From Candidatus Latescibacterota bacterium (GTDB taxonomy: Bacteria; Latescibacterota; UBA2968; GCA-2709665), in NCBI GenBank assembly GCA_965248435.1, contig OZ252100.1, forward strand, positions 3,872,001 through 3,936,000: a stretch of DNA of 64,000 nt. The letters are read 5' to 3'. Below are positions 2,835-54,162 of the stretch, piece after piece (the stretch's first letter is position 1; each line of letters starts with the position of its first letter). The notes under the pieces were generated by a model. That model did not search any database. It was not told where the DNA came from and was given only the letters and a program-made list of their open reading frames with translations. A program made the translations under genes and the position numbers.

Positions 2835-3353
2835 ATGGATTGGGAAATCAAGAAACGGGGACGCGTGACCTACTACCGCAAGAAGACCAACGAGGTCTTC
2901 TCGGACCTGGTCGTGGAGGAACTGGACAACGGGGACATAAAGATCCGGTTCGTGGGCATGTCGGGTGCGCTGGCTGCCACCAACGAACTCGGTCTCGGCG
3001 ATGTTGCGAGCATGGACCCCACGAATGAGATCCCGCGCTTGTTCGACACCTGGGATTTCTACGTTCGCGAGGCGGGGATTTGCGGCGGGCTATCCGACCT
3101 CGACTTCCTGGAGGTCCACTCCTTCGGAGCTGCACCCAAGCAGCCGAATCCCATCGTGGATCCTGAAGGCTATCTGCAGGAGAAGAGGCGCATCCGTCAG
3201 GCCTATCGCGAAGCATACGCGAAGTACTGGAAGGAGAAGCTTCCGGAGAACGGGTTGCCTGCGCGGTTTACGGTCTATCTTGAGGAACTCCCAGACACGG
3301 AGGCCAGCTACGAGCTGTGTGCGACGGCCTTGTTGCAGAAATCGCTTCAGTAA
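2835..3353 (+). CDS. Hypothetical protein
   Basis: Strong RBS GGAGG and coding-like codon usage; no family recognised. Confidence 0.7.
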   Translation: MDWEIKKRGRVTYYRKKTNEVFSDLVVEELDNGDIKIRFVGMSGALAATNELGLGDVASMDPTNEIPRLFDTWDFYVREAGICGGLSDLDFLEVHSFGAAPKQPNPIVDPEGYLQEKRRIRQAYREAYAKYWKEKLPENGLPARFTVYLEELPDTEASYELCATALLQKSLQ

Positions 3354-26250: not shown

Positions 26251-26298
26251 GTTTGTTCTATCCCCTGTTGAGAATTGGCATTATCTTGATGGCTAGGC

Positions 26299-27000
26299 CG
26301 GGAACCGGGACACCAGAACACGGGAACCGGGACACCAGAACACGGGAACCGGGACACCAGAACACGGGAACCGGGACACCAGAACACGGGAACCGGGACA
26401 CCAGAACACGGGAACCGGGACACCAGAACACGGGAACCGGGACACCAGAACACGGGAACCGGGACACCAGAACACGGGAACCGGGACACCAGAACACGGG
26501 AACCGGGACACCAGAACACGGGAACCGGGACACCAGAACACGGGAACCGGGACACCAGAACACGGGAACCGGGACACCAGAACACGGGAACCGGGACACC
26601 AGAACACGGGAACCGGGACACCAGAACACGGGAACCGGGACACCAGAACACGGGAACCGGGACACCAGAACACGGGTACCGGGGCATCAAAACACGGGTA
26701 CCGGGACACCAGAACACGGGAACCGGGACACCAGAACACGGGTACCGGGGCATCAAAACACGGGTACCGGGACACCAGAACACGGGAACCGGGACACCAG
26801 AACACGGGTACCGGGGCATCAAAACACGGGTACCGGGGCATCAAAACACGGGTACCGGGGCATCAAAACACGGGTACCGGGGAACCAAAACACGGGTACC
26901 GGGGCATCAAAACACGGGTACCGGGGAACCAAAACACGGGTACCGGGGCATCAAAACACGGGTACCGGGGCATCAAAACACGGGTACCGGGTACCGTAAG
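26299..27000 (+). repeat. Tandem array of 31 x 22-bp units CGGG(A/T)ACCGGG(ACACCAG/GCATCAA)AACA
   Basis: Counted directly: 26299-26980 = 31 units, the first 17 identical; no spacers. Confidence 0.97.
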
Positions 27001-27032
27001 AGACAGGCGAAGCTCACTTCCTGATATTGGGG

Positions 27033-27219
27033 TTCGCCAGCAGGAGCTGGCCACGAAAATGTTATGCCAACACCGTGAATCATTTTGTCGCCAACGGGAG
27101 TTGGCTCCTACCGGATAAAATTTCCAAATTCATTCGGTAGGAGCCGTCTCCTGACGGCGAACCATTCGATCACGGTGTGTTGTCTCTGACAACCGTACCC
27201 GCCGCCTCCCGGCGGCGAA
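27033..27219. repeat. 187-bp GTAG-type REP/REPIN-like palindromic element, copy 1
   Basis: Contains TCGCCAACGGGAGTTGGCTCCTAC and GTAGGAGCCGTCTCCTGACGGCGA; near-identical copies at 43486 and 46773. Confidence 0.88.
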
Positions 27220-27321
27220 CATTTACTCAATGTCGAAGGGCCAAGATTTCGTTCGAACCAAGATCCCCGGTACCCGAAATCGGGTCACAGATCAGTTGAT
27301 TTGGTGTAAGGAGGGTAATCC

Positions 27322-28845
27322 ATGAGGGTTCAGGTTCCAGGCTCAGAAAACGTCGTGAACATCGGCACGCGCAAGCAGCTGTTCGTGGATGACCACATCA
27401 TCGAGACGACGCGGTGGATATCGCCTCGCTCGTGTGAAACTGCCCGATGGCTGCAGCCCCCTGCACGCCCACGCGCTGACCTGGATGGATGGAGCGAAGG
27501 GGTCGATCGGATCGAGGACGACATTCCAGGGCACCTGCTGAGGGCGACGGCGTTCGTGACCCGGATCATCAATCAGCCAGAGCGCTACGAGGGCAATCCG
27601 ATCATGGGGAAGGAACGGCCCTGGGAGGGGGAGTCCGGCCCGTGGCCGACCGGGATCACGTACGATGAGGAGGACGAGATCTGGAAGATGTGGTACCTGA
27701 GCCTGACTCACGAAGACGAGGGCCGGAGGCACGTCTACAACTGTTTGTATGCGACTTCAGAGGATGGCATCACCTGGGACCGACCTGAGTTGGGCATGGT
27801 GAAGGACAGCGCGGGCAACGACACGAACATCGTTCACGAGGGCAAGATCCAGTTCGCCTTCAAGGACCCGAGGGCCGGAGATCCTTCGAGGCGATACAAG
27901 ATGGGTGTCTCGAAGGCCTCCAAAGAGGGACTGCAGCACCCGATGGTCTACTACTCGCCGGACGGCCTCCACTGGACGCCCGACCCGGGGCCGTTCAGCC
28001 ACAACCGCGGAGATGAAACCCTGTCTGTGATGTACGACCCGCAGAGCAAGAAGTACCTGGGCTTTTGTCGTAACCGGTATCCCAAACCGACCCTTCGTCA
28101 CCGGACGGAGCGATCGCTCCTGAGGATCCAGAGCAACGACCTGGTCCACTGGTCGATGTCGGAGCCGATCATGGACAAGGATTCGCTGGACCCGTTCGAC
28201 ACAGACTTCTACGGCATGAGAGGGACATTCTACGAGAGCGTGTACCTCGGTTTCGTGAATGTTCATCATACTGCGAAGGACGATTTCGACATCTGGTTCG
28301 CCTACAGCAGAGACAGCTTTCACTGGGAGCGGATTCGGACAGGACCTTTCTTGCCCCTGGGCCCTGAAGGGAGCTGGGACCAGGGCCAGGTTTCGGCGGT
28401 GCAAGAGCCGATTCGGCTGAACAACGAGCTCTGGTTCTACTACACGGGCGTGGACGGATATCACGATGCGCGGGGCAGGGCAGCCGCTCTGGGCCTGGCG
28501 AAGCTGCGCGTGGACGGCTTCGTGTCGATCGACGCGTTCGAGAACACGCACCGGGGGAAGAATTACCCCCCGACGCTCCTCACAAAGCCGCTCTACTCGC
28601 CGGGCAACAGGCTGGAGGTAAACGTGGATGCCTCCAAGGGGTTCATCGAGGCCGAGCTGTTGAACGTGGACGGGTATCCGATAGAGGGTTATTCGAATGA
28701 CGACTGCGACACGTTCAAGGGAGACAGCCTGGCGCACACGTTCACCTGGAAAGGGAGGTCGGATATCGGAGATCAGGTTCCGGTAAGGATTCGGTTTACG
28801 ATGAATAACGCGAAGCTTTATGCGTTGCAGATTCCTGAGGCGTAG
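27322..28845 (+). CDS. Beta-propeller glycoside-hydrolase-like protein (GH32/43/130-like), paralog 1
   Basis: KQLFVDD, WKMWY, YATSEDGITW, SPDGLHW, SRDSFHW, AKLRVDGF. Confidence 0.75.
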   Translation: MRVQVPGSENVVNIGTRKQLFVDDHIIETTRWISPRSCETARWLQPPARPRADLDGWSEGVDRIEDDIPGHLLRATAFVTRIINQPERYEGNPIMGKERPWEGESGPWPTGITYDEEDEIWKMWYLSLTHEDEGRRHVYNCLYATSEDGITWDRPELGMVKDSAGNDTNIVHEGKIQFAFKDPRAGDPSRRYKMGVSKASKEGLQHPMVYYSPDGLHWTPDPGPFSHNRGDETLSVMYDPQSKKYLGFCRNRYPKPTLRHRTERSLLRIQSNDLVHWSMSEPIMDKDSLDPFDTDFYGMRGTFYESVYLGFVNVHHTAKDDFDIWFAYSRDSFHWERIRTGPFLPLGPEGSWDQGQVSAVQEPIRLNNELWFYYTGVDGYHDARGRAAALGLAKLRVDGFVSIDAFENTHRGKNYPPTLLTKPLYSPGNRLEVNVDASKGFIEAELLNVDGYPIEGYSNDDCDTFKGDSLAHTFTWKGRSDIGDQVPVRIRFTMNNAKLYALQIPEA

Positions 28846-29267
28846 AGAATGGTCACTCAATTGCGGATTGCGGAATGGGGATTGCGGATTGAAAATGGCT
28901 GGATCACGAAAGGGCACGAAAGTCCACGAAGGAAAGTGAGAATTAAGAGTTCTAGGTCATTGAATCACTACTCCGTATTTGTCATTCCGAAGCGTCAGCG
29001 AGGAATCTCAACAGGCAACGGAACAGCCGTTACTTCGGGACGGGATTCGGTGAGTCCATCACTCTTGAGATCCCTCGTCACACGGCTGCTCAGAGGGTTA
29101 AGAAAGCATCTTAAGGACGCGAAGTGGCTCCTCGGGATAGACAAATCGGGTACGTTGCTTGTGTATATGTTAATGCGTGATGAATCACCAATCCGCAATC
29201 CGAAATCCCAAATCCGCAATTGGATAGCGGATCACTCTGTTTTTTCACTTATAAGGAGTAACGAGTC
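28841..29267. repeat. Composite spacer: inverted ATTGCGG heptamers around a GTCATTCCG..GGAATCTC palindrome pair
   Basis: Forward heptamers 28858-28892, reverse 29189-29222; near-identical copy at 30769-31196. Confidence 0.9.
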
Positions 29268-30773
29268 ATGAACTTACAGATTCCAGGTTCAGATCTCATC
29301 GTGAACATCGGGACGCGGAAGCAGCTGTTCTTCGACGATTACATCCTTGAAACGACGCGGTGGATCTGTCCGCGGCATTCCGAAACCGGTCGGTTTCTCC
29401 AGCCGCCCGGTCGCAGCACCCGAACCGATCTGGATGGATGGAGCGAAGGGGTGGACCGGATCGAGGGAGACGTGCCGGGACACCTGCTGAGAGCGACGGC
29501 GTTCGTGACCCGGACGGTAAACCAGCCCGAGCGGTATGAAGGCAATCCGATCATGGTGAAGACCGAAACGTGGGAGAAAGACGCCCCGCATCCGTGCAAG
29601 ATCATGTACGACGAGGAGGACGGGATCTGGAAGATGTGGTACCTGGGCCTGAAGGACCACATCACACATCAATATTTTCTGATGTATGCCACATCGAAAG
29701 ACGGGTTCGAATGGGAGAAACCGGACCTGGGGCTGGTGAAGGATGACGCGGGGAACGACACGAACATGATCATCGACGGAAAGTTCACGACCATTTACAA
29801 GGATCTTGAAGCCGACCCTTCCAGGCGCTACAAGATGGGGGGCTCGAGGCGGACGGATGGCGTGCAGCATCCGACGCTTTACCATTCGCCCGACGGTTTT
29901 CACTGGACGCCGGACCCCGGGCCTTTCAGCGACACTCGCGGAGATGAAAACTTCGGATTTATCCACGACCCGGAGAGCAAGAAGTTCATCGCGTTCTGTC
30001 GAAATGTCTATCCCAAACCGATGCTGGTTCACAGGACGGAGCGAAGGGTCTACCGGATGCAGAGCAACGATCTGCTGCACTGGACGATGTCAGAGCCCGT
30101 TATCCAGAAGGACGAACTGGATCCGCCCGACACCGACTTCTACGGCCTGGGATGCATGTTCTACGAGAGCATTTACGTTGGATTCGTGTCGGTCCACCAG
30201 ACCGCGATAGACGACTTTAAGACCTGGCTGGCCTTCAGCAGAGACAGTTTCAACTGGCATCGAATCAGGAGTCGACCGTTCCTTCCACTGGGACCCGAAG
30301 GCGGCTGGGAGTGGGGCATGGTTGGGTGTGGGCCCCCGCACCGGGTGGGAGATGAACTCAGGTTCTACTATTCGGGCAGGGACGGGCTGCACGACCAGCA
30401 GGGCAAGAATACCGGGATCGGGATTGCCAATCTGCGTCTGGACGGGTTCGTGTCGATGGATACGTTCGAGAACAAACATCGAACGAAGAACTACCCGCCG
30501 ATGCTGATGACCAAGCCGCTCTACTCCCCGGGGAATCGACTCGTCGTGAACGCCGATGCGACAGACGGATTCATCGACGCCGAGTTGTTGGACGTGGACG
30601 GGTATCCGATTGAGGGTTACTCGAGCGAGGACTGCGATACGTTCGAGGGAGATAGCCTGGCGCACACGTTTACCTGGAAAGGGAACCCGGATATCGGAGG
30701 GCGCCTTCCTGCCAGAGTTCGATTCACCCTGAATAACACGAAATTGTATGCTTTACAGATTCCTAAGGCGTAG
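29268..30773 (+). CDS. Beta-propeller glycoside-hydrolase-like protein, paralog 2
   Basis: Full-length similarity to paralog 1. Confidence 0.75.
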   Translation: MNLQIPGSDLIVNIGTRKQLFFDDYILETTRWICPRHSETGRFLQPPGRSTRTDLDGWSEGVDRIEGDVPGHLLRATAFVTRTVNQPERYEGNPIMVKTETWEKDAPHPCKIMYDEEDGIWKMWYLGLKDHITHQYFLMYATSKDGFEWEKPDLGLVKDDAGNDTNMIIDGKFTTIYKDLEADPSRRYKMGGSRRTDGVQHPTLYHSPDGFHWTPDPGPFSDTRGDENFGFIHDPESKKFIAFCRNVYPKPMLVHRTERRVYRMQSNDLLHWTMSEPVIQKDELDPPDTDFYGLGCMFYESIYVGFVSVHQTAIDDFKTWLAFSRDSFNWHRIRSRPFLPLGPEGGWEWGMVGCGPPHRVGDELRFYYSGRDGLHDQQGKNTGIGIANLRLDGFVSMDTFENKHRTKNYPPMLMTKPLYSPGNRLVVNADATDGFIDAELLDVDGYPIEGYSSEDCDTFEGDSLAHTFTWKGNPDIGGRLPARVRFTLNNTKLYALQIPKA

Positions 30774-31196
30774 AGAATGGTCACTCAATTGCGGATTGCG
30801 GAATGGGGATTGCGGATTGAAAAGGCTGGATCACGAAAGGGCACGAAAACCCGCGAAGGAAAGTGAGAAATAAGAGTTCTAGGTCATTGAATCACTCCTG
30901 CCGCCCCCTATTTGTCATTCCGAAGCGTCAGCGAGGAATCTCAACAGGCAACGGAACAGCCGTTACTTCGAGACAGGATTTAGTGAGTCCATCACTCTTG
31001 GGATCCCTCGTCGCCCGGCTGCTCAGAGGGTTAAGAAAGCATCTCAAGGACGTGAAGTGGCTCCTCGGGATGACAAATCGGGCACGTTGCTTGTGTATAT
31101 GTTAATGCGTGGTGAATCGCCAATCCGCAATCCGAAATCCCAAATCCGCAATTGGATAGCGGGTCACTCTGTTTCAGTTATAAGGAGTAACGAGCC
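30769..31196. repeat. Second copy of the composite spacer
   Basis: Aligns by eye along its length with 28841-29267. Confidence 0.9.
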
Positions 31197-32714
31197 ATGA
31201 ACTTACAGATCCCAGGTTCAGATCTCATCGTGAACGTCGGCACGCGCAAGCAGATGTTCTTCGACGACTATATCTTGGAAACCACGCGGTGGATTTGTCC
31301 GCGGCACTCCGAAACCGGTCGGTTTCTCCAGCCGCCCGGACGCAGCACCCGTACAGATCTGGACGGATGGAGCGAAGGGGTGGACCGGATCGAGGAAGAC
31401 GTGCCAGGCCACCTTCTCAGGGCGACGGCGTTCGTGACCCGGACCGTGAATCAACCGGATCGGTACGAGGGCAACCCGATCATGGTGAAGACCGAACCGT
31501 GGGAGAAGGACGCGCCGCATCCGTGCAAGATCATGTACGATGAGGAGGACGGGATCTGGAAGATGTGGTATCTCGGCGTGAGTGCTGTCAGCACGAAGGA
31601 GTATTATGACTGGTACTTCCTGATGTATGCCACGTCGAAAGACGGATTCGAATGGGAGAAGCCGAAGCTGGGGCTGGTGAAAGACGACGATGGGAATGAC
31701 ACGAACATGATCATAAACGGCAAATTTACGACCATCTACAAGGACCCGGAAGCCGATCCGTCCAGACGCTACAAGATGGGAGGCTCGAGAAAAACAGAAG
31801 GTGTGCAGCATCCCACGCTCTACTATTCGCCCGACGGCTTCCACTGGACGCCGGACCCGGGGCCTTTCAGTGAGACTCGCGGCGATGAAAACTTCGGGTT
31901 TATCCACGATCCGGAGAGCAAGAAGTTTATCGCGGTCTGTAGGAATATCTATCCGAAGCCGATGCTGGTTCCCAGGATAGAGCGAAGGACCTACCGGATG
32001 CAGAGCAACGACCTGCTCCACTGGACGATGTCAGAGCAGATCATCCAGAAGGACGAACTGGACCCGCCAGACACCGACTTCTACGGCCTGGGATTCGCGT
32101 TCTACGAGAGCATTTACGTCGGATTCGTGTCAGTCCACCACACCGCAAGAGACGACTTTCAGACCTGGCTGGCCTACAGCAGAGACAGCTTCAACTGGCA
32201 TCGACTCAGGAGCCGACCGTTCCTGCCCCTGGGACCAGAAGGCAGCTGGGAGTGGGGCATGGTGGGGTGCGGGCCCCCGCACCGGGTGGGGGATGAGCTC
32301 CGGTTCTACTATTCAGGGCGGGACGGGCTGCACGACCAGCAGGGTAAGAATACCGGGATCGGGATTGCCGACCTGCGCCTGGACGGGTTCGTGTCGATGG
32401 ATACGTTCGAGAACAAACATCGAACGAAGAACTACCCGCCGACGCTGATGACCAAGCCGCTCTACTCCCCGGGGAATCGACTCGTCGTGAACGCGGATGC
32501 GAGGGACGGATTTATCGACGCCGAGCTGCTGGACGTGGACGGGTATCCGATAGAGGGTTACTCGAAGGAGGACTGCGATACGTTCGAGGGGGACAGCCTG
32601 GCGCACACGTTTACCTGGAAAGGGAATCCGGATATCGGAGGGCGCCTTCCGGCCCGAGTTCGATTTACCCTGAATAACACGAAGCTGTATGCGCTGCAGA
32701 TTCCCAAAGCGTAA
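31197..32714 (+). CDS. Beta-propeller glycoside-hydrolase-like protein, paralog 3
   Basis: Very close to paralog 2. Confidence 0.75.
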   Translation: MNLQIPGSDLIVNVGTRKQMFFDDYILETTRWICPRHSETGRFLQPPGRSTRTDLDGWSEGVDRIEEDVPGHLLRATAFVTRTVNQPDRYEGNPIMVKTEPWEKDAPHPCKIMYDEEDGIWKMWYLGVSAVSTKEYYDWYFLMYATSKDGFEWEKPKLGLVKDDDGNDTNMIINGKFTTIYKDPEADPSRRYKMGGSRKTEGVQHPTLYYSPDGFHWTPDPGPFSETRGDENFGFIHDPESKKFIAVCRNIYPKPMLVPRIERRTYRMQSNDLLHWTMSEQIIQKDELDPPDTDFYGLGFAFYESIYVGFVSVHHTARDDFQTWLAYSRDSFNWHRLRSRPFLPLGPEGSWEWGMVGCGPPHRVGDELRFYYSGRDGLHDQQGKNTGIGIADLRLDGFVSMDTFENKHRTKNYPPTLMTKPLYSPGNRLVVNADARDGFIDAELLDVDGYPIEGYSKEDCDTFEGDSLAHTFTWKGNPDIGGRLPARVRFTLNNTKLYALQIPKA

Positions 32715-34690: not shown

Positions 34691-34936
34691 AGGCCGGGTA
34701 CCGGGAAAGCAAAACACGGGTACCGGGTGCCGCAAAAGAACGGGTCACCGAATCGCGGATTGCAGATTTCGGAATGAAAAGCAGAATCGATTGAGGCAAG
34801 TAAATTACGAAACGAATAATCAATCGCGAATCCGGAACTGAATTTTCGATCCCCGGACCCCGGTACCCGGTACCCGGTACCCGGTACCCGAAATCGGGAA
34901 GCAGGCTACATGATGATGGGGATGAGGGAGCCAGCG

Positions 34937-37420: not shown

Positions 37421-37635
37421 TAGCGGGTACCGGGAAATCAAAAACACGGGTACCGGGTACCGTAAAACCGTGGATCGCGGATCGTGAATCGTGGATCGGA
37501 AAGCGGCCAGATAGAACGCGGCCGTGCATCTGGTAGGAGCCGCCTCCCGGCGGCGAATCTTCACGTGGTAATCGTGTTGGTGATGGTTCGAACCCCGGTA
37601 CCCTGTACCCGGTACCCGGAATTCAGTGATGCGAA

Positions 37636-39609: not shown

Positions 39610-39920
39610 GGGCGTCATTCAATTGCGGATTGCGGAATGGAAGACCGGGTATCGGGAAAGCAAAACACGGGTACCGGGTACCGTAGAATCTGTATCTCAC
39701 GAATACTGCAATAGTGGAGACCGTTCGTCTCGCCTGTCCCGAGCTTGTCGAGGGGAGTGCCCCGAGCCCTTCAAAACGTTTTAGTTCTCAGAGGGCGAGG
39801 GGTTTATCGAGAGACAAGGATCGCCGAATGGGTGGTGTCGGCTGGCCTGGCCCCTCGATACACCCGCGAGATTATTCGGCCTTGGGAAAACAAAACCTTC
39901 ACCCTTAAAGGAGTTCCATC

Positions 39921-41348
39921 GTGTCAACAAAGCGGCCCAACGTAGTGCTGATCATGTGCGACGAGCTCCGCCACGACTGCGGCGGTTTCGCGAATCACCC
40001 GCTGGTTCGCACACCGAATCTGGACCGGCTCGCCGAGAACGGCGTCGTGTTCGAGAACGCGTATTGCGCGACGCCGGTCTGCTCACCGGCGCGAGCGAGC
40101 TGGCTGACCGGGCTCTACCCGCACGCGCACGGTCAGCTCGTCAATTACGGACCCGGAAGGCTGCTCGGGCGGCCGGGGTCCGAGATGCGCTCGGACTGTG
40201 TCACGATCGGGGACGTGCTCAAACGTGAGGGCTACCGATGCGGCATCGTGGGTCCGTGGCATCTGGGGCAAGACCATCAACCCCAGCACGGGTTCACCGA
40301 TTTCTGGCGGGCGGTGGGTTACCAGGGCGACAACCCGGATCCCTGGCAGGAGTACCTCAAACGGGAATCGGTGCCTGACATCAATTCCGCGGGCACGATG
40401 ACGGACGACGGCTTTATGATGAAATACGCAACGCTGACCGACCCGCGCCAGCAGCGGACCACGTGGATGATCGATCGCACATTCGACTTCCTGGACGGGC
40501 GGGACGACGGGGCGTTCTTTTTGTTCCTCAGCGTGAAGGACCCGCACCCGCCCATCATCGTTGCCCCCGAACTCGTGGAGATGTATCCGGAAGACCGGAT
40601 CGAGTTGCCGCCCACTTGGGCCGATCCGCTGGACGGCCGGCCGGACTACCTGCACGCGGAGGTCGGTCGACTGAAACCGGATGTGAAGGAAGCGACCTTC
40701 AAGCGGATGATGGCGCACTACTTCGCGCTGGTCACGCATATCGACCGAGAAGTGGGACGGCTGATCGACCGGCTTCGAGCGCTGGATCTTCTGGATCATA
40801 CGATCGTTGCGTTCATCAGCGATCACGGCGAGATGCTGGGCGACCACGGGTTTACGAGCAAGCGGGTATTCTACGAGGGCTCCGTGAGGGTGCCCTGCAT
40901 CCTTTCGTGGCCGGACGGGCTCCCTGCAGGCCTCCGAATCGGGACCCCCCTCGGAGGGGTGGACCTGATGCCGACGCTGCTGGAGCTGGCGGGTGCCGAG
41001 CTGGAGTCGGAGATTGACGGCCGCAGCGTCGCAGAGCCTGTGGCCGGCGGTCGTGAGCCGGACCCGGTTCCGGTCTTCTCAGAGATTTCATCCTGGAAGG
41101 CCATCTCGGCACTGAGCGAGGATCCGGCGGAGCTGGCGGTCCAGATGATGGTCCTCGACGGCTCGTGGAAATACATACGGAACCGGTTCGACGAGGACGA
41201 GCTCTACGACCTCGAGACGGATCCGAACGAGATCACTAATCTCGCCGGGCAACCCGAGCAGGCGGATCGCATCTCGGATCTGCGAGAGAAAATCCGATCG
41301 ATGCTGGGCCGCACGGGTCCGGGACCTTATGACTGGTGCCTTTCATGA
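39921..41348 (+). CDS. Sulfatase
   Basis: PNVVLIMCD, CSPAR (formylglycine motif), SDHGEMLGDHG, ELYDLETDPNE. Confidence 0.93.
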   Translation: MSTKRPNVVLIMCDELRHDCGGFANHPLVRTPNLDRLAENGVVFENAYCATPVCSPARASWLTGLYPHAHGQLVNYGPGRLLGRPGSEMRSDCVTIGDVLKREGYRCGIVGPWHLGQDHQPQHGFTDFWRAVGYQGDNPDPWQEYLKRESVPDINSAGTMTDDGFMMKYATLTDPRQQRTTWMIDRTFDFLDGRDDGAFFLFLSVKDPHPPIIVAPELVEMYPEDRIELPPTWADPLDGRPDYLHAEVGRLKPDVKEATFKRMMAHYFALVTHIDREVGRLIDRLRALDLLDHTIVAFISDHGEMLGDHGFTSKRVFYEGSVRVPCILSWPDGLPAGLRIGTPLGGVDLMPTLLELAGAELESEIDGRSVAEPVAGGREPDPVPVFSEISSWKAISALSEDPAELAVQMMVLDGSWKYIRNRFDEDELYDLETDPNEITNLAGQPEQADRISDLREKIRSMLGRTGPGPYDWCLS

Positions 41349-41353
41349 GGGAA

Positions 41354-41406
41354 CGGGTACCGGGAATCAAACACGGGTACCGGGGATCGGGTACCGGGTA
41401 CCGCAA
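41354..41406 (+). repeat. GGGTACC repeat, left arm
   Basis: Same motif after stop codons near 15648, 26299, 34695, 37424, 39646, 45223, 48229, 50216, 53974, 56176, 59019 and 60245. Confidence 0.92.
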
Positions 41407-41429
41407 GAATCAGTTCTGAGACAGGAGAT

Positions 41430-41798
41430 ATGAACGTAAAGAGCTACAAGGACCTGGAGGTATGGAGAAAGGGTATTGAGATTGTAGATCTCGTGTATGA
41501 TATCACGGCTCAGTTTCCGAAGGAAGAAACGTATGGTTTGGCTGCGCATATGCAAAAAACGGCGATCTCCATACCATCCAACATTGCAGAGGGCCATGCC
41601 CGACAGCACACCAGAGAGTATCAGCAGTTCTGTCACATCGCGTTGGGTTCGTGTGCTGAATTGGCAACACAGTTGACGATCGCAGAACGACGTAGTTATG
41701 TGTGTGGTGAAAACCTATCGAAATTGGAGGAGGAATTGGACCACGAGACTCGAATGCTCCACAACTTGATAAAGAGTCTTAAGGATAAGTCGCGCTAG
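41430..41798 (+). CDS. Four-helix-bundle protein (23S rRNA-IVP/bAvd-like family)
   Basis: SYKDLEVWRKG, FPKEETYGL, SIPSNIAEG, IALGSCAEL; RBS AGGAG; lower GC. Confidence 0.93.
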   Translation: MNVKSYKDLEVWRKGIEIVDLVYDITAQFPKEETYGLAAHMQKTAISIPSNIAEGHARQHTREYQQFCHIALGSCAELATQLTIAERRSYVCGENLSKLEEELDHETRMLHNLIKSLKDKSR

Positions 41799-41830
41799 GA
41801 ATCTCAAATTTGAAATCAGGACAAATTGGT

Positions 41831-41879
41831 TTTTCGAACCCCGGACCCCGGTACCCGGTACCCGGTACCCAAAATCGGG
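41831..41879 (-). repeat. GGTACCC repeat, right (inverted) arm
   Basis: TTTTCGAACCCCGG..(GGTACCC)n..AAATCGGG; also at 27265, 32875, 34843, 37587 and 54126, each shortly before a start codon. Confidence 0.92.
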
Positions 41880-41918
41880 TAGCTGACCACTTGGTGGCGA
41901 TGAGGAGGGCTATACAAG

Positions 41919-43424
41919 ATGAGGTTGGAAGTTCCCGGCTCGGAACTGATCGTGAACATCGGGACGCGAAAGCAGCTGTTCATCGATGACTATATCCTCG
42001 AGCGGAGTCGATGGATCACGCCCCGACTCGCCGAGACGGCTCGCTACATTCAGCCCCCGGCGCGAGACCGGAGCGATCTGGACGGATGGACGGAGGGGGT
42101 GGATCGGATCGCGGGAGACGTTCCGGGTCACCTGATTCGGGCGACATCCTTCGTGACGCGGACCCTGAATCAGCCTCAGCGGTTCGAGGGCAACCCGGTC
42201 ATGAAGCGTGCCTATCCGTGGGAGGGGAAGTCAGGGCCGTGGCCGACGAGCATCATCTACGACGAAGAGGAAGGCATCTGGAAGATGTGGTACAATGGCC
42301 TGACCCTGGAGGACGTCCCGGTCGAAAGGTTTCTCTACAGGTGTCTCTACGCCACCTCCAAGGACGGCATCAGCTGGGACCGGTCGCCCCTGGGCCTGCA
42401 CAAGGACGAAGACGGCAACGATACGAACGTCTTCTACTGGGGCAAGGGACAGTATATCCTCAAGGACAAAGAGGCCGATCCTTCCAGGCGGTACAAGATG
42501 GTCTACTCCACGCGAGGAAAGGAGGGGCTGCAGCAACCGATGGTCCAGCATTCCCCGGACGGCCTTCACTGGACGGAGGATCCCGGGCCCTTTAGCCACG
42601 GCCGTGGAGATGAAAACCTGAGCGTGATGTATGACCCGGTGAGCAAGAAGTATGTCGGGATCTGCCGCAACGTCTATCCTAAACCGATGCTGGTCCACAG
42701 GACGGAACGATCCATCTTCAGGATGCAGAGCAATGATCTGATCCACTGGTCCACACCCCTGCCGATCATCGACAGGGACGAGCTGGATCCGCTGGATTTG
42801 GACTTCGAGGGGATGTGGGGGATGTACTATGAGGGCATGTACCTGGGCTTCCTGAGGGTCAGCCACACCGCGCCCAGCTCGATGGACAGCTGGTTCGCCC
42901 ACAGCAGAGACGGGTTCCACTGGCAGAGGCCGAGGACCGGGCCGTTCTTTACCTGGGGACCGGAGGGGAGCTGGGACTCGAAATCGGTGTCGATCTTGAC
43001 CCACCCGAATCGGGTGGGCGACGAGCTCTGGGTCTACTATTCGGGGTCGAACCACGAAGACACGGCTGTTGGGCTGGCCAAGCTGCGTCTGGACGGGTTC
43101 GTGTCGATCGATGCCCCTCCCAACACTCGCCATCCGAAGAGCAGCCCGGCCACGCTGATGACGAAGCCCCTCTACTCTCCCGGCAATCGGCTGGTGATCA
43201 ATGCGGAAGCTCCCGAGGGCAGTATCGAGGCCGAGTTGTTGAGCGTGGATGGCGTCGTCATCGATGGTTACTCGAGGGAAGACTGCGACAGCTTCAGAGG
43301 AGACAGCCCCGCGCATACCGTCACGTGGAAAGGGAGGGGGGATATAGGAGAGGGTATTCCTGTGAGGATTCGTTTTTATATGGAGAAGGCGAAGCTTTAC
43401 GCATTGCAGATTCCCAAGACGTAA
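41919..43424 (+). CDS. Beta-propeller glycoside-hydrolase-like protein, paralog 4
   Basis: Full-length similarity to paralogs 1-3. Confidence 0.75.
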   Translation: MRLEVPGSELIVNIGTRKQLFIDDYILERSRWITPRLAETARYIQPPARDRSDLDGWTEGVDRIAGDVPGHLIRATSFVTRTLNQPQRFEGNPVMKRAYPWEGKSGPWPTSIIYDEEEGIWKMWYNGLTLEDVPVERFLYRCLYATSKDGISWDRSPLGLHKDEDGNDTNVFYWGKGQYILKDKEADPSRRYKMVYSTRGKEGLQQPMVQHSPDGLHWTEDPGPFSHGRGDENLSVMYDPVSKKYVGICRNVYPKPMLVHRTERSIFRMQSNDLIHWSTPLPIIDRDELDPLDLDFEGMWGMYYEGMYLGFLRVSHTAPSSMDSWFAHSRDGFHWQRPRTGPFFTWGPEGSWDSKSVSILTHPNRVGDELWVYYSGSNHEDTAVGLAKLRLDGFVSIDAPPNTRHPKSSPATLMTKPLYSPGNRLVINAEAPEGSIEAELLSVDGVVIDGYSREDCDSFRGDSPAHTVTWKGRGDIGEGIPVRIRFYMEKAKLYALQIPKT

Positions 43425-43700: not shown

Positions 43701-45203
43701 ATGAGATTAGAAATCCCTGGTTCAGAACTGATCGTGAACGTCGGGACGCAAAAGCAGCTGTTCATAGATGACTATATCATCGAGCGGTCGCGGTGGATCA
43801 CGCCCCGACTCGCCGAGACGGCCCGATATATTCAGCCCCCCGCGCGAGATCGCAGCGATCTGGACGGATGGACGGAGGGGGTGGATCGGATCGTGGGAGA
43901 CGTCCCGGGTCACCTGATCCGGGCGACCAGCTTCGTGACGCGGTCCCTGAATCATCCGGAGCGGTTTGAAGGCAACCCGGTCATGAAGCGTGCCTATCCG
44001 TGGGAGGGGGAGTCTGCGCCGTGGCCGACGAGCATCATCTACGACGAAGAGGAAGACATCTGGAAGATGTGGTACAACGGCCTGACCACGGTGGACGTTC
44101 CGAAGCGGGCGTGGCATTATCGGTGTCTCTACGCCACCTCCAAGGACGGCATCAACTGGGATCGGTCGCCCCTGGGGCTGCACAGGGACGAAGAGGGCAA
44201 CGATACGAACGTCTTCTACTGGGGAAAAGGGCAGTATATCTTCAAGGACAAAGAGGCCGATCCTTCCAGACGGTACAAGATGGTCTACTCCACGCGAAGC
44301 AAAGAGGGGCTGCAGCACCCGATGGTCCAGCATTCCCCCGACGGCCTTCACTGGATAGAGGACCCCGGCCCTTTCAGCCACGGACGTGGGGATGAAAACC
44401 TCGGGGTGATGTATGACCCCGTAAGTAAGAAGTATGTCGGGATCTGCCGAAACGTCTATCCTAAACCGGTCCTGGTCCACAGGACGGAACGGTCCATCTA
44501 TAGGATGCAGAGCAATGACCTGGTTCACTGGTCCACGCCCGTGCCCATCATCGACAGGGACGAGCTGGATCCGATGGATATGGACTTCGAGGGGATGGGG
44601 GGGATGTTTTATGAGGGCATGTACCTGGGCTTCCTGAGAACCAGCCACACCGCGCCCACCAAGATGGACAGCTGGTTCGCCCACAGCAGAGACGGGTTCC
44701 ACTGGCAGAGGCCGAGGACCGGGCCGTTCTTTACCTGGGGACCGGAGGGGAGCTGGGACTCGAAATCGGTGACGATCTCGACCCCGAAACGGGTCGGGGA
44801 CGAGCTCTGGGTCTTCTATTCGGGGTCGGACGACGAAGACACGGCTGTTGGGCTGGCGAAGCTGCGGCTGGACGGGTTCGTGTCGATCGATTCCCCTCCC
44901 AACACTCGCCACCCGAAGAACAACCCGGCCACGCTGATGACGAAGCCCCTCTACTCTCCGGGCAATCGACTCGTGATCAATGCCGAGGCCAACCAGGGCA
45001 GTATTGAGGCCGAGTTGCTGAGCGTGGATGGTTTCGTGCTCGATGGTTATTCGAGGGAAGACTGCGACAGCTTCAGCGGAGACAGCCCCCCGCATACCTT
45101 CACGTGGAAAGGAAATGCGGATCTAGGAGAGTGTCTTCCTGTGAGGGTTCGTCTTTATATGGAGAAGGCGAAACTCTACGCGTTGCAGATACCTCAGGGT
45201 TAA
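43701..45203 (+). CDS. Beta-propeller glycoside-hydrolase-like protein, paralog 5
   Basis: Very close to paralog 4. Confidence 0.75.
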   Translation: MRLEIPGSELIVNVGTQKQLFIDDYIIERSRWITPRLAETARYIQPPARDRSDLDGWTEGVDRIVGDVPGHLIRATSFVTRSLNHPERFEGNPVMKRAYPWEGESAPWPTSIIYDEEEDIWKMWYNGLTTVDVPKRAWHYRCLYATSKDGINWDRSPLGLHRDEEGNDTNVFYWGKGQYIFKDKEADPSRRYKMVYSTRSKEGLQHPMVQHSPDGLHWIEDPGPFSHGRGDENLGVMYDPVSKKYVGICRNVYPKPVLVHRTERSIYRMQSNDLVHWSTPVPIIDRDELDPMDMDFEGMGGMFYEGMYLGFLRTSHTAPTKMDSWFAHSRDGFHWQRPRTGPFFTWGPEGSWDSKSVTISTPKRVGDELWVFYSGSDDEDTAVGLAKLRLDGFVSIDSPPNTRHPKNNPATLMTKPLYSPGNRLVINAEANQGSIEAELLSVDGFVLDGYSREDCDSFSGDSPPHTFTWKGNADLGECLPVRVRLYMEKAKLYALQIPQG

Positions 45204-53970: not shown

Positions 53971-54162
53971 TAACGGGTACCGGGGAATCAAAACACGGGT
54001 ACCGGGGATCGGGAAAACCAAAACCAGAAATCACCGCAGAGGACGCAGAGAAAACTCGGGTAGCGGGAAACCAAAACACGGGTACCTGGGATCGGGTAAT
54101 GGCAAAATTTGGATTGAAATTGATCTTTCGAACCCCGGTACCCGGTACCCGGTACCCGAACA

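Follow-up and report, generated by a model that had tools for sequence, protein, structure and literature searches.

What the protein encoded by 23S rRNA intervening sequences (IVSs) does has been an open question ever since the first description of its open reading frame (ORF), in Leptospira. Its relatives, the IVP family (PF05635), sit outside rRNA in the great majority of cases and are annotated there merely as 'four helix bundle protein'. In Coxiella, the S23p-bearing 23S IVS is described as having a 28-bp terminal stem, with two to three tandem copies of GACAGAT just upstream of the ORF. RNase III is reported to cleave this IVS within the stem, at the start of the first repeat, and the authors of that account conclude that S23p is probably not made there (PMC4990558). 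Tandem 7-bp units are also described from cyanobacterial intergenic regions, where these STRRs can form hairpins between cistrons and have no known function (PMC2670836). The Correia elements of Neisseria (CREE/NEMIS) are reported to have inverted ends and to be co-transcribed with their neighbours, and their hairpin is bound by RNase III, upon which it is either cut or protected (PMC2649163). REPIN-RAYT systems, described as vertically inherited, consist of a gene between inverted copies of a dispersed intergenic repeat (PMC3337134, PMC3116915).

In this study, we analysed a 64-kb stretch of DNA from a Candidatus Latescibacterota bacterium, referred to as the window, in which a PF05635 gene is enclosed by inverted heptamer arms in the spacer between two protein-coding genes. 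The features of this locus are:

39921 to 41348, + strand: upstream host gene, sulfatase of 475 aa (PF00884, E 4e-53), stop codon at 41346-41348
41355 to 41402, + strand: left (5') arm with four GGGTACC, the last two in tandem, in 22-nt-type modules (..AAACACGGGTACCGGG..), from the heptamer scan
41424 to 41427, + strand: GGAG, a Shine-Dalgarno-like motif read from the sequence (putative function), 2 nt 5' of the ATG and within the loop, between left arm and start codon
41430 to 41798, + strand: cargo gene, PF05635/TIGR02436 four-helix-bundle protein (23S rRNA IVP family) of 122 aa, from the ORF list and profile match
41833 to 41879, + strand: right (3') arm, TTCGAACCCCGGACCCC(GGTACCC)3 AAAATCGGG, complementary to the left arm, from the heptamer scan and fold
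41919 to 43424, + strand: downstream host gene with ATG at 41919, one of a tandem family of ~500-aa paralogs without a Pfam match (ORF list, profile search)

The + strand heptamers GGGTACC start at 41355, 41375, 41389 and 41396 in the left arm, and GGTACCC starts at 41850, 41857 and 41864 in the right arm, in tandem over 41850-41870. The first heptamer lies 6 nt 3' of the sulfatase stop codon, and the AAATCGGG tail of the right arm ends at 41879, 40 nt 5' of the ATG at 41919, exactly as placed in the preliminary description of this DNA (6 bp after the stop, about 40 bp before the next start). That description had also claimed that the inverted arms enclose the gene and pair, and had proposed a fold of the spacer. 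In the RNA fold of 41346-41921 the arms are paired in both the minimum-energy and the centroid structures, and the arm-arm duplex alone has a predicted energy of -62.9 kcal/mol, with about 23 bp, one mismatch and additional outer pairs. The claim thus holds in silico. The energy of the whole folded spacer is unexceptional (z -1.81; 4 of 100 shuffles are as low).

The cargo protein matches PF05635 with 116.7 bits (cut-off 33.8, E 7e-34) and TIGR02436, 'four helix bundle protein', with 109.8 bits (cut-off 24) in profile searches. An AlphaFold (AF2) model based on a 10-sequence alignment (pLDDT 95.5) contains helices at residues 10-26, 37-56, 61-87 and 94-121. Foldseek aligned this model to 2GSC (TM 0.90), 2RLD (TM 0.79) and Avd, 4DWL (TM 0.78), and ribonucleoprotein entries of diversity-generating retroelements (DGRs) such as 8UB7 are also among the structural matches. 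2GSC is XCC0516 of Xanthomonas, which shares 39-41% identity with the 122-aa protein (phmmer E 7e-24 to 2gsc_A), and 2RLD is BT_0352, 'S23 ribosomal protein family'; both entries contain five chains each. The bAvd/IVP-like four-helix-bundle assignment proposed from the letters is therefore borne out by two models above cut-off and a 2GSC-like structure, and the lower-GC gene that had been noted is present, with a GC content of 47.4% vs 58.6% in the window, 63.5% in the sulfatase gene and 59.9% in the downstream gene. Identity with Avd itself was considered and rejected, the scores being below the cut-offs (NF033474, 25.7 vs 80; PF22296, 24.5 vs 40). Only PF05635 and bAvd models match the 122-aa protein, in which no catalytic domain was detected, and the profile search gave no match to HUH/Y1 tyrosine transposases.

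The host site of the cassette is the spacer between the sulfatase gene and the ~500-aa gene and not 23S rRNA; the genome has one 23S gene, 2.5 Mb away (C1:1364982-1368012). The 20 neighbouring ORFs scanned, from 19434 to 63098, encode sulfatases, pectate-lyase/GH28-like proteins, DUF6785/6784 proteins and housekeeping enzymes, and 19 of them are on the + strand. As stated in the preliminary description, there is neither a reverse transcriptase nor a transposase among these 20 ORFs. A scan confined to sigma-70-type sites found no sigma-70-like promoter in the cassette spacer, and no + strand terminator was found there. No Rfam family reached its gathering score anywhere in the 64-kb window. An RNase III gene is encoded in this genome. 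Four sequencing runs, all of one sample, match the stretch and gave contigs at flat, DNA-like depth that are broken at repeats; one metatranscriptome run contains 8% of the stretch's words.

We lean, with moderate confidence, towards reading the locus as an IVS-type PF05635 cassette in an operon spacer that is read through, folds by arm pairing, is cut by RNase III and encodes a protein that recognises its own repeats. The PF05635 gene, with its own putative ribosome-binding site, would lie in the loop of a long-range stem formed by the inverted tandem-heptamer arms. With no recognisable promoter or terminator within it, the cassette would rely on read-through from the sulfatase gene, which runs in the same direction. 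Once transcribed, the two arms would form a near-perfect helix of about 23 bp, the type of substrate that RNase III cleaves, and the cut would free a short IVP mRNA with ends closed by stem remnants and would uncouple the flanking cistrons. The protein probably recognises heptamer arrays, both in its own arms and in ~70 other GGGTACC dimer clusters, and its binding would feed back on arm pairing or cleavage. What we infer here is that transcription runs through the spacer, that the arms pair in the cell, that the stem is cut and that the protein binds the arms. By analogy, this course of events appears the most likely one given the precedent of the Coxiella IVS, the lack of a promoter and terminator in the spacer scan and the presence of an RNase III gene.

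The GGGTACC arms are not unique to the cargo gene. The window contains 59 heptamers vs 5.4 +/- 2.7 in shuffles, and 18 heptamer dimers with at most one mismatch vs 0.01 expected, which is far above chance. Genome-wide, 79 perfect GGGTACC dimers form 71 clusters. The earlier suggestion that the arms belong to an intergenic element family is supported by these clusters and by further arm pairs in the window:

26299 to 27275, + strand: left arm expanded to 31.5 copies of a 22-nt unit, with a GGGTACC dimer at its end, followed by 270 nt of spacer and one right heptamer at 27269 (duplex -29.9 kcal/mol)
34696 to 34890, + strand: gene-less GGGTACC arm pair, left arm 34696-34731, right arm 34851-34890 (duplex -60.0 kcal/mol)
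37425 to 37617, + strand: gene-less GGGTACC arm pair (duplex -49.9 kcal/mol)
53975 to 54157, + strand: gene-less GGGTACC arm pair (duplex -51.9 kcal/mol)

These four gene-less pairs enclose 130-270 nt of non-coding sequence, and TRF reports a period of 7 at 34859-34890 and 54134-54158. Left arms start 2-60 nt 3' of 12 stop codons of + strand ORFs in the window, and right arms stop 6-49 nt short of the next start codon. In 12 gene-less spacers of the window, no remnant of an IVP gene was found beyond the ~20-27 nt that adjoin the right arm. A second repeat family, (GCGGATT)n, forms inverted pairs at 28858-28891/29188-29223 and 30786-30819/31120-31155. The position of gene-less pairs in tight co-directional spacers, right behind stop codons, is also what would be expected of a structural RNA device that works without cleavage. 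The stem would then insulate or tune the cassette by protecting mRNA ends, by coupling or occluding translation or by blocking read-through, as was proposed for the cyanobacterial STRR hairpins between cistrons, and the job of the protein would be unrelated. The 7-bp-repeat hairpins between hupS and hupL are described as thought to stabilise transcripts or couple translation (PMC2670836). Such a device leaves the RNase III cut reported for the equivalent rRNA stem (PMC4990558) unexplained, and we consider it quite unlikely, also in view of the protein families described below.

The genome contains 14 PF05635 matches, including five intact paralogs with 82-83% protein identity; among the others are one copy split by an insertion, one truncated copy, three divergent genes and one pseudogene. 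All copies of the GGGTACC type carry GGGTACC arms, and the right-arm module is kept in five of five paralogous cassettes. Of the seven GGGTACC-flanked copies or fragments examined, six precede a paralog of the ~500-aa gene, most examined paralogs of this gene are preceded by a leader of the right-arm type, and segmental homology spans the small gene together with its flanks. The arms might thus be a local coincidence, namely leader and trailer repeats of the tandem ~500-aa family with the small gene copied along. Since co-duplication was possible with most copies followed by this paralog, flank complementarity was scored for each match separately, as the local complementarity between 200 nt upstream and 250 nt downstream. 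RNAduplex full-length energy of the same 200/250-nt flanks did not separate cognate from random pairs, and the local score was used instead. At 3000 random positions of this genome, a score of 12 corresponds to the 99th percentile, and at least 12 was reached at 7 of 9 PF05635 loci. Four divergent loci each have a repeat of their own (GCGGATTG, CGAATATCG, CGTCGTTCG and GGAGTATTGGAG), and in a cross matrix of their arms the highest scores belong to the cognate pairs. The same layout with other repeats and other neighbours, at these divergent paralogs and at most loci of the multi-phylum sample described below (63/75), makes local coincidence highly improbable; it is contradicted by both and by the gene-level control given with that sample.

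Among the five paralogs (the cargo gene vs the four others), dN/dS is 0.07-0.15 at dS 0.47-1.48, which we take to mean that these are old genes that are translated and under constraint. Identity is 0.71-0.72 in their arm regions vs 0.59 at fourfold-degenerate sites, a modest excess. The preliminary description had suggested looking for empty sites at orthologous junctions. In the sister species (G001), the genes on both sides of the orthologous junction from the sulfatase to the downstream gene are 83-85% identical to those of the window, and the sequence between them retains only ~15 codons from the start of the small gene, with stop codons, and degenerate arms. Behind an array of 22-nt units that covers about 740 nt lies a second remnant, of 29 codons. 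The difference at this junction is therefore the decay of an old copy, and there is no empty insertion site. The decayed copy implies that at least some gene-less arm pairs are decayed cassettes. No intact cognate copy is present in G001, which has 11 perfect GGGTACC dimers vs 79 here. In a further genome (G021), the arm heptamer dimer occurs at two places only, so that dispersal of the arms throughout the genome is particular to this lineage.

These data bear on an alternative at the DNA level, a mobile or recombining cassette. Here, the arms would serve as terminal inverted repeats that carry iterated binding sites. The four-helix protein would be a DNA-binding accessory of machinery encoded elsewhere, and the gene-less pairs would be non-autonomous derivatives of the MITE or REPIN kind. 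The gene-less arms in the window, the low GC of the cargo gene and the higher dimer number here than in the sister species, where the cognate gene occurs only in broken copies, are in line with such a cassette. The age of the five paralogs, however, argues against recent movement, the sister-species junction holds a decayed copy and not an empty site, and the two places in G021 speak against a general dispersal. Furthermore, the 122-aa protein lacks a catalytic domain.

The layout was then followed beyond this genome by extracting the flanks of family genes, as the preliminary description had proposed. In addition to the 7/9 own loci, 8 of 18 loci in related genomes reach the threshold, with other tandem heptamers. 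For a broad sample, a family-motif scan of one genome per species yielded 80 loci from Planctomycetota, Bacteroidota, Acidobacteriota, Patescibacteria, Omnitrophota, Clostridia, Proteobacteria, Cyanobacteria and two archaea; five had flanks that were too short, leaving 75 scorable. A score of at least 12 was found at 63 of these 75 loci vs 81 of 2454 shifted positions at the same loci, and at least 14 at 53 of 75 vs 22 of 2454. At the gene level, 53 of 74 ORFs identified by the family HMM score at least 14 vs 3 of 169 small ORFs of other kinds that have no IVP gene next to them (Fisher p 2e-32). The outcome that the preliminary description had set against its own proposal, four-helix genes that are no more often arm-flanked than other genes, is contradicted by these numbers. 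Ten further IVP genes were found in the flanks, where they had first been seen as high-scoring 'controls'. The loci tested for similarity to 23S rRNA (L016-L124) showed none. The gene-plus-arms layout is a hallmark of the PF05635 family.

The top-scoring non-IVP ORF in the flanks is a PF13366 (PDDEXK_3, 'GxxExxY') gene. The single PF13366 gene of the genome studied here has a perfect 14-bp inverted flank repeat, and among the 30 best loci from 151 genomes of the phylum, 25 of the 27 that could be scored reach at least 12 vs 1 of 128 controls. PDDEXK_3/GxxExxY is a small family unrelated to PF05635 that has the same gene-plus-inverted-arms layout. Its repeat unit differs: 39 of 50 arms have units of 9 or 10 nt and only 2 have units of 7 nt, whereas the best autocorrelation lag in 126 IVP arms is 7 nt in 97, 8 nt in 20, 9 nt in 7 and 12 nt in 2. 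A unit length of its own in each of two unrelated families points to repeats that are read by the encoded protein and not to generic hairpins. A structural RNA device would leave this tie to two protein families, each with its own repeat unit, unexplained. For a DNA-level cassette, it is favourable that PD-(D/E)XK, a nuclease fold, shares the layout. No PDDEXK_3 remnant was found in the two GCGGATT-bounded spacers of the window.

Across the IVP loci, the paired part of the arms has a median length of 31 nt (interquartile range 24-37), and the median gap between the paired part and the protein match is 23 nt on the 5' side and 26 nt on the 3' side. The genes lie close to their neighbours (median spacers of 68 nt upstream and 47 nt downstream) and are co-oriented with the upstream neighbour in 56 of 68 cases (p 0.013) and with the downstream neighbour in 58 of 67 (p 0.001), against a background of 212 of 317 adjacent pairs, which favours the IVS-type reading. 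In the 5' arm, G exceeds C at 50 loci and falls below it at 8 (p 2e-8). A G-rich 5' arm is a strand-specific property, which symmetric DNA termini would not need, and its steadiness relative to the coding strand is unexpected for a DNA-level cassette. The arm sequences vary between loci and the heptamer changes fast; its identity tracks protein similarity weakly (0.53 vs 0.47). Between the Pseudoxanthomonas loci L052 and L091, every unit of both arms has switched together, GGGGACC vs GGGACCC, and this concerted change suits a DNA-level cassette. An RNA stem under selection should show an excess of G-U over A-C mismatches, and none was found in the arms (99 vs 112; 20 loci vs 24), although ambiguity in the register of tandem repeats weakens this test. 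This counts against an RNA reading of the cassette, the complementarity looks strand-symmetric as a DNA-level cassette would have it, and the lack of excess fits DNA-level homogenisation as well. Taken with the age of the copies, the decayed junction and the arm polarity, we regard a DNA-level mobile cassette as unlikely.

For the RNase III-cut, IVS-type cassette that we prefer, the unexceptional energy of the whole spacer (z -1.81), the threshold being reached at only 8/18 related loci and the weak link between heptamer and protein similarity are counted against it as well. Most archaea are not known to have RNase III, which counts against the cleavage reading, two of the 80 loci being archaeal. 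Potentially, PF05635 and PF13366 represent a class of self-recognising hairpin cassettes that is widespread among bacteria, extends to some archaea and has so far gone undescribed; its inverted iteron arrays, with a unit set by the protein family (7 nt and 9-10 nt, respectively), would be bound by the protein. ORF-bearing 23S IVSs might then be members that landed in rRNA, and intergenic heptamer arrays, perhaps including STRRs, might be gene-less remains or dependants. We offer this broader proposal tentatively and hold it to be possible but doubtful. The bracket, shared by relatives in most of the sampled genomes, is a first testable clue to the function of the PF05635 family. If nearly all relatives are arm-enclosed, the family gains a partner in cis, its function becomes directly testable, and three subjects so far handled apart are linked: rRNA IVSs, heptamer repeats between genes and two large families without a known function. 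For annotation, the layout accounts for odd, low-GC small genes and for long repeat arrays within operons.

The full texts searched, with subscription journals, curators' notes and supplements aside, contain no description of inverted repeats around PF05635 or PF13366 genes outside rRNA. Compared with the ORF-bearing 23S IVSs of Leptospira and Coxiella, the cassette shares the protein family encoded in the loop and the complementary termini that form a long stem, with tandem heptamers in the 5' arm just upstream of an ORF that is sense to the host transcript. Its host is an intercistronic spacer and not helix 9, 25 or 45 of 23S rRNA. Moreover, the Shine-Dalgarno-like motif lies inside the loop here, whereas that of the Coxiella IVS is described as removed by the cut, and the gene here is under purifying selection, whereas the Coxiella gene is described as decaying. 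By this comparison, the cassette would work like an IVS in design, yet without the 23S rRNA location that defines one. STRRs resemble the arms in their tandem 7-bp intergenic units that are able to pair; their definition is cyanobacterial, and a cyanobacterial locus of the broad sample, from Phormidium (L121), has tandem-heptamer arms around a PF05635 gene. The arrays described here differ from STRRs in being inverted pairs around the gene of one family, and the literature searched contains no link between STRRs and a protein. CREE/NEMIS, which are short and have inverted ends, are the closest functional analogue of the gene-less arm pairs. Unlike the arms, they are gene-free, their ends are unique and not tandem heptamers, and they occur in Neisseria only. 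Of the features of MITE- or Correia-type elements, inverted ends are present here, and the one orthologous junction compared showed decay and not an empty site. As in REPIN-RAYT systems, the gene is flanked by an inverted repeat that is also dispersed in this genome (71 dimer clusters) but not in G021. RAYT, however, is an HUH tyrosine transposase, whereas the 122-aa protein is a four-helix bundle without a catalytic motif, and REPs are single palindromes, not tandem heptamers. The protein shares its fold with Avd (TM 0.78 to 4DWL), which is described as acting bound to RNA and a reverse transcriptase; it scores below the cut-offs of the Avd models, and no reverse transcriptase is encoded among the 20 neighbouring ORFs. 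In summary, the IVS design itself was already known, and what appears to be new, going by the literature searched, is the family-wide rule together with a repeat unit that is specific to each family.

In the window, a second family of inverted arms, (GCGGATT)n, bounds non-coding spacers of about 300 nt between paralogs of a tandemly amplified family of about 500 aa. The duplex of these arms has an energy of -47.3 kcal/mol. The same heptamer flanks a divergent PF05635 gene (four-helix-bundle, 23S rRNA IVP family) at C1:778521 on the host contig. A cargo remnant was sought in the (GCGGATT)n-bounded spacers of the window and none was found. Nested within such a spacer, 9-10-mers of the CACGAAAGG type form a solo run.

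Second arm family and paralogs (window coordinates)
28858-28891 with 29188-29223, first (GCGGATT)n inverted arm pair
30786-30819 with 31120-31155, second (GCGGATT)n inverted arm pair
27322-28845, 29268-30773, 31197-32714, 41919-43424 and 43701-45203, members of the family of about 500 aa

These paralogs share a conserved N-terminus, MR(L/V)(E/Q)(V/I)PGSE, and further copies occur elsewhere in the host genome and in the sister species G001. They have no match in Pfam, and their sole other match is a sub-threshold one to the NCBIfam beta-1,2-mannobiose phosphorylase model (24 bits vs 450).

Expanded arrays were also observed. At window 26299-26991 a 22-nt unit is repeated 31.5 times (95% matches) with a GGGTACC dimer at the array end, and the 248-aa ORF at 26253-26999 is spurious, a product of this array. 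In the sister species, an IVP remnant (L136) is preceded by a comparable array of about 22-nt units, about 740 nt long. Additionally, a short GC-rich palindromic repeat of the GTAGGAGCCGCCTCCCGGCGGCGAA type recurs in arm-bounded spacers (window about 27135-27170, 27195-27220 and 37535-37560), and seven plus-strand copies of this type are present genome-wide.

At window 39670-39682 and 41376-41395 the left-arm module, which on the minus strand reads GGTACC..GGTACC and then CGTGTTTTG, was detected as a terminator-like site on that strand and could thereby also stop antisense transcription; the number of terminator-like sites in the surrounding region equals the shuffle expectation.

Broken PF05635 copies in the host genome include:

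G000:C1:3044337-3045934 (L041, L043), GGGTACC-flanked copy split into N-terminal and C-terminal parts by an insertion of about 1.2 kb that contains a long ORF
G000:C1:772013-772338 (L042, L044), minus strand, frame-broken pseudogene with CGTCGTTCG-type inverted arms

The pseudogene directly follows a putative tRNA-like sequence, and the DNA beyond the pseudogene looks, by eye, like signal-recognition-particle RNA.

Inverted repeats are also found around other genes. Two further ORFs in the sampled loci lie within strong inverted flank repeats (flank score, local complementarity between both flanks):

L121:1211-1831, plus strand, 207-aa ORF without clear family on a Phormidium contig, score 45.5
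L111:1923-2486, plus strand, LigT-like 2'-5' RNA ligase gene, score 22

Moreover, inverted tandem repeats enclose genes of PF13366 / TIGR04256 (PDDEXK_3, GxxExxY), a small family unrelated to PF05635, at 25 of 27 scorable loci compared with 1 of 128 controls (30 loci sampled within the phylum, L138-L167). Repeats surround such genes at:

G000:C1:2879047-2879385, minus strand, PF13366 gene in the host genome
L073:772-1164, minus strand, PF13366 gene in a sampled locus

The repeat unit of the PF13366 arms is 9-10 nt, whereas that of the PF05635 arms is 7 nt.
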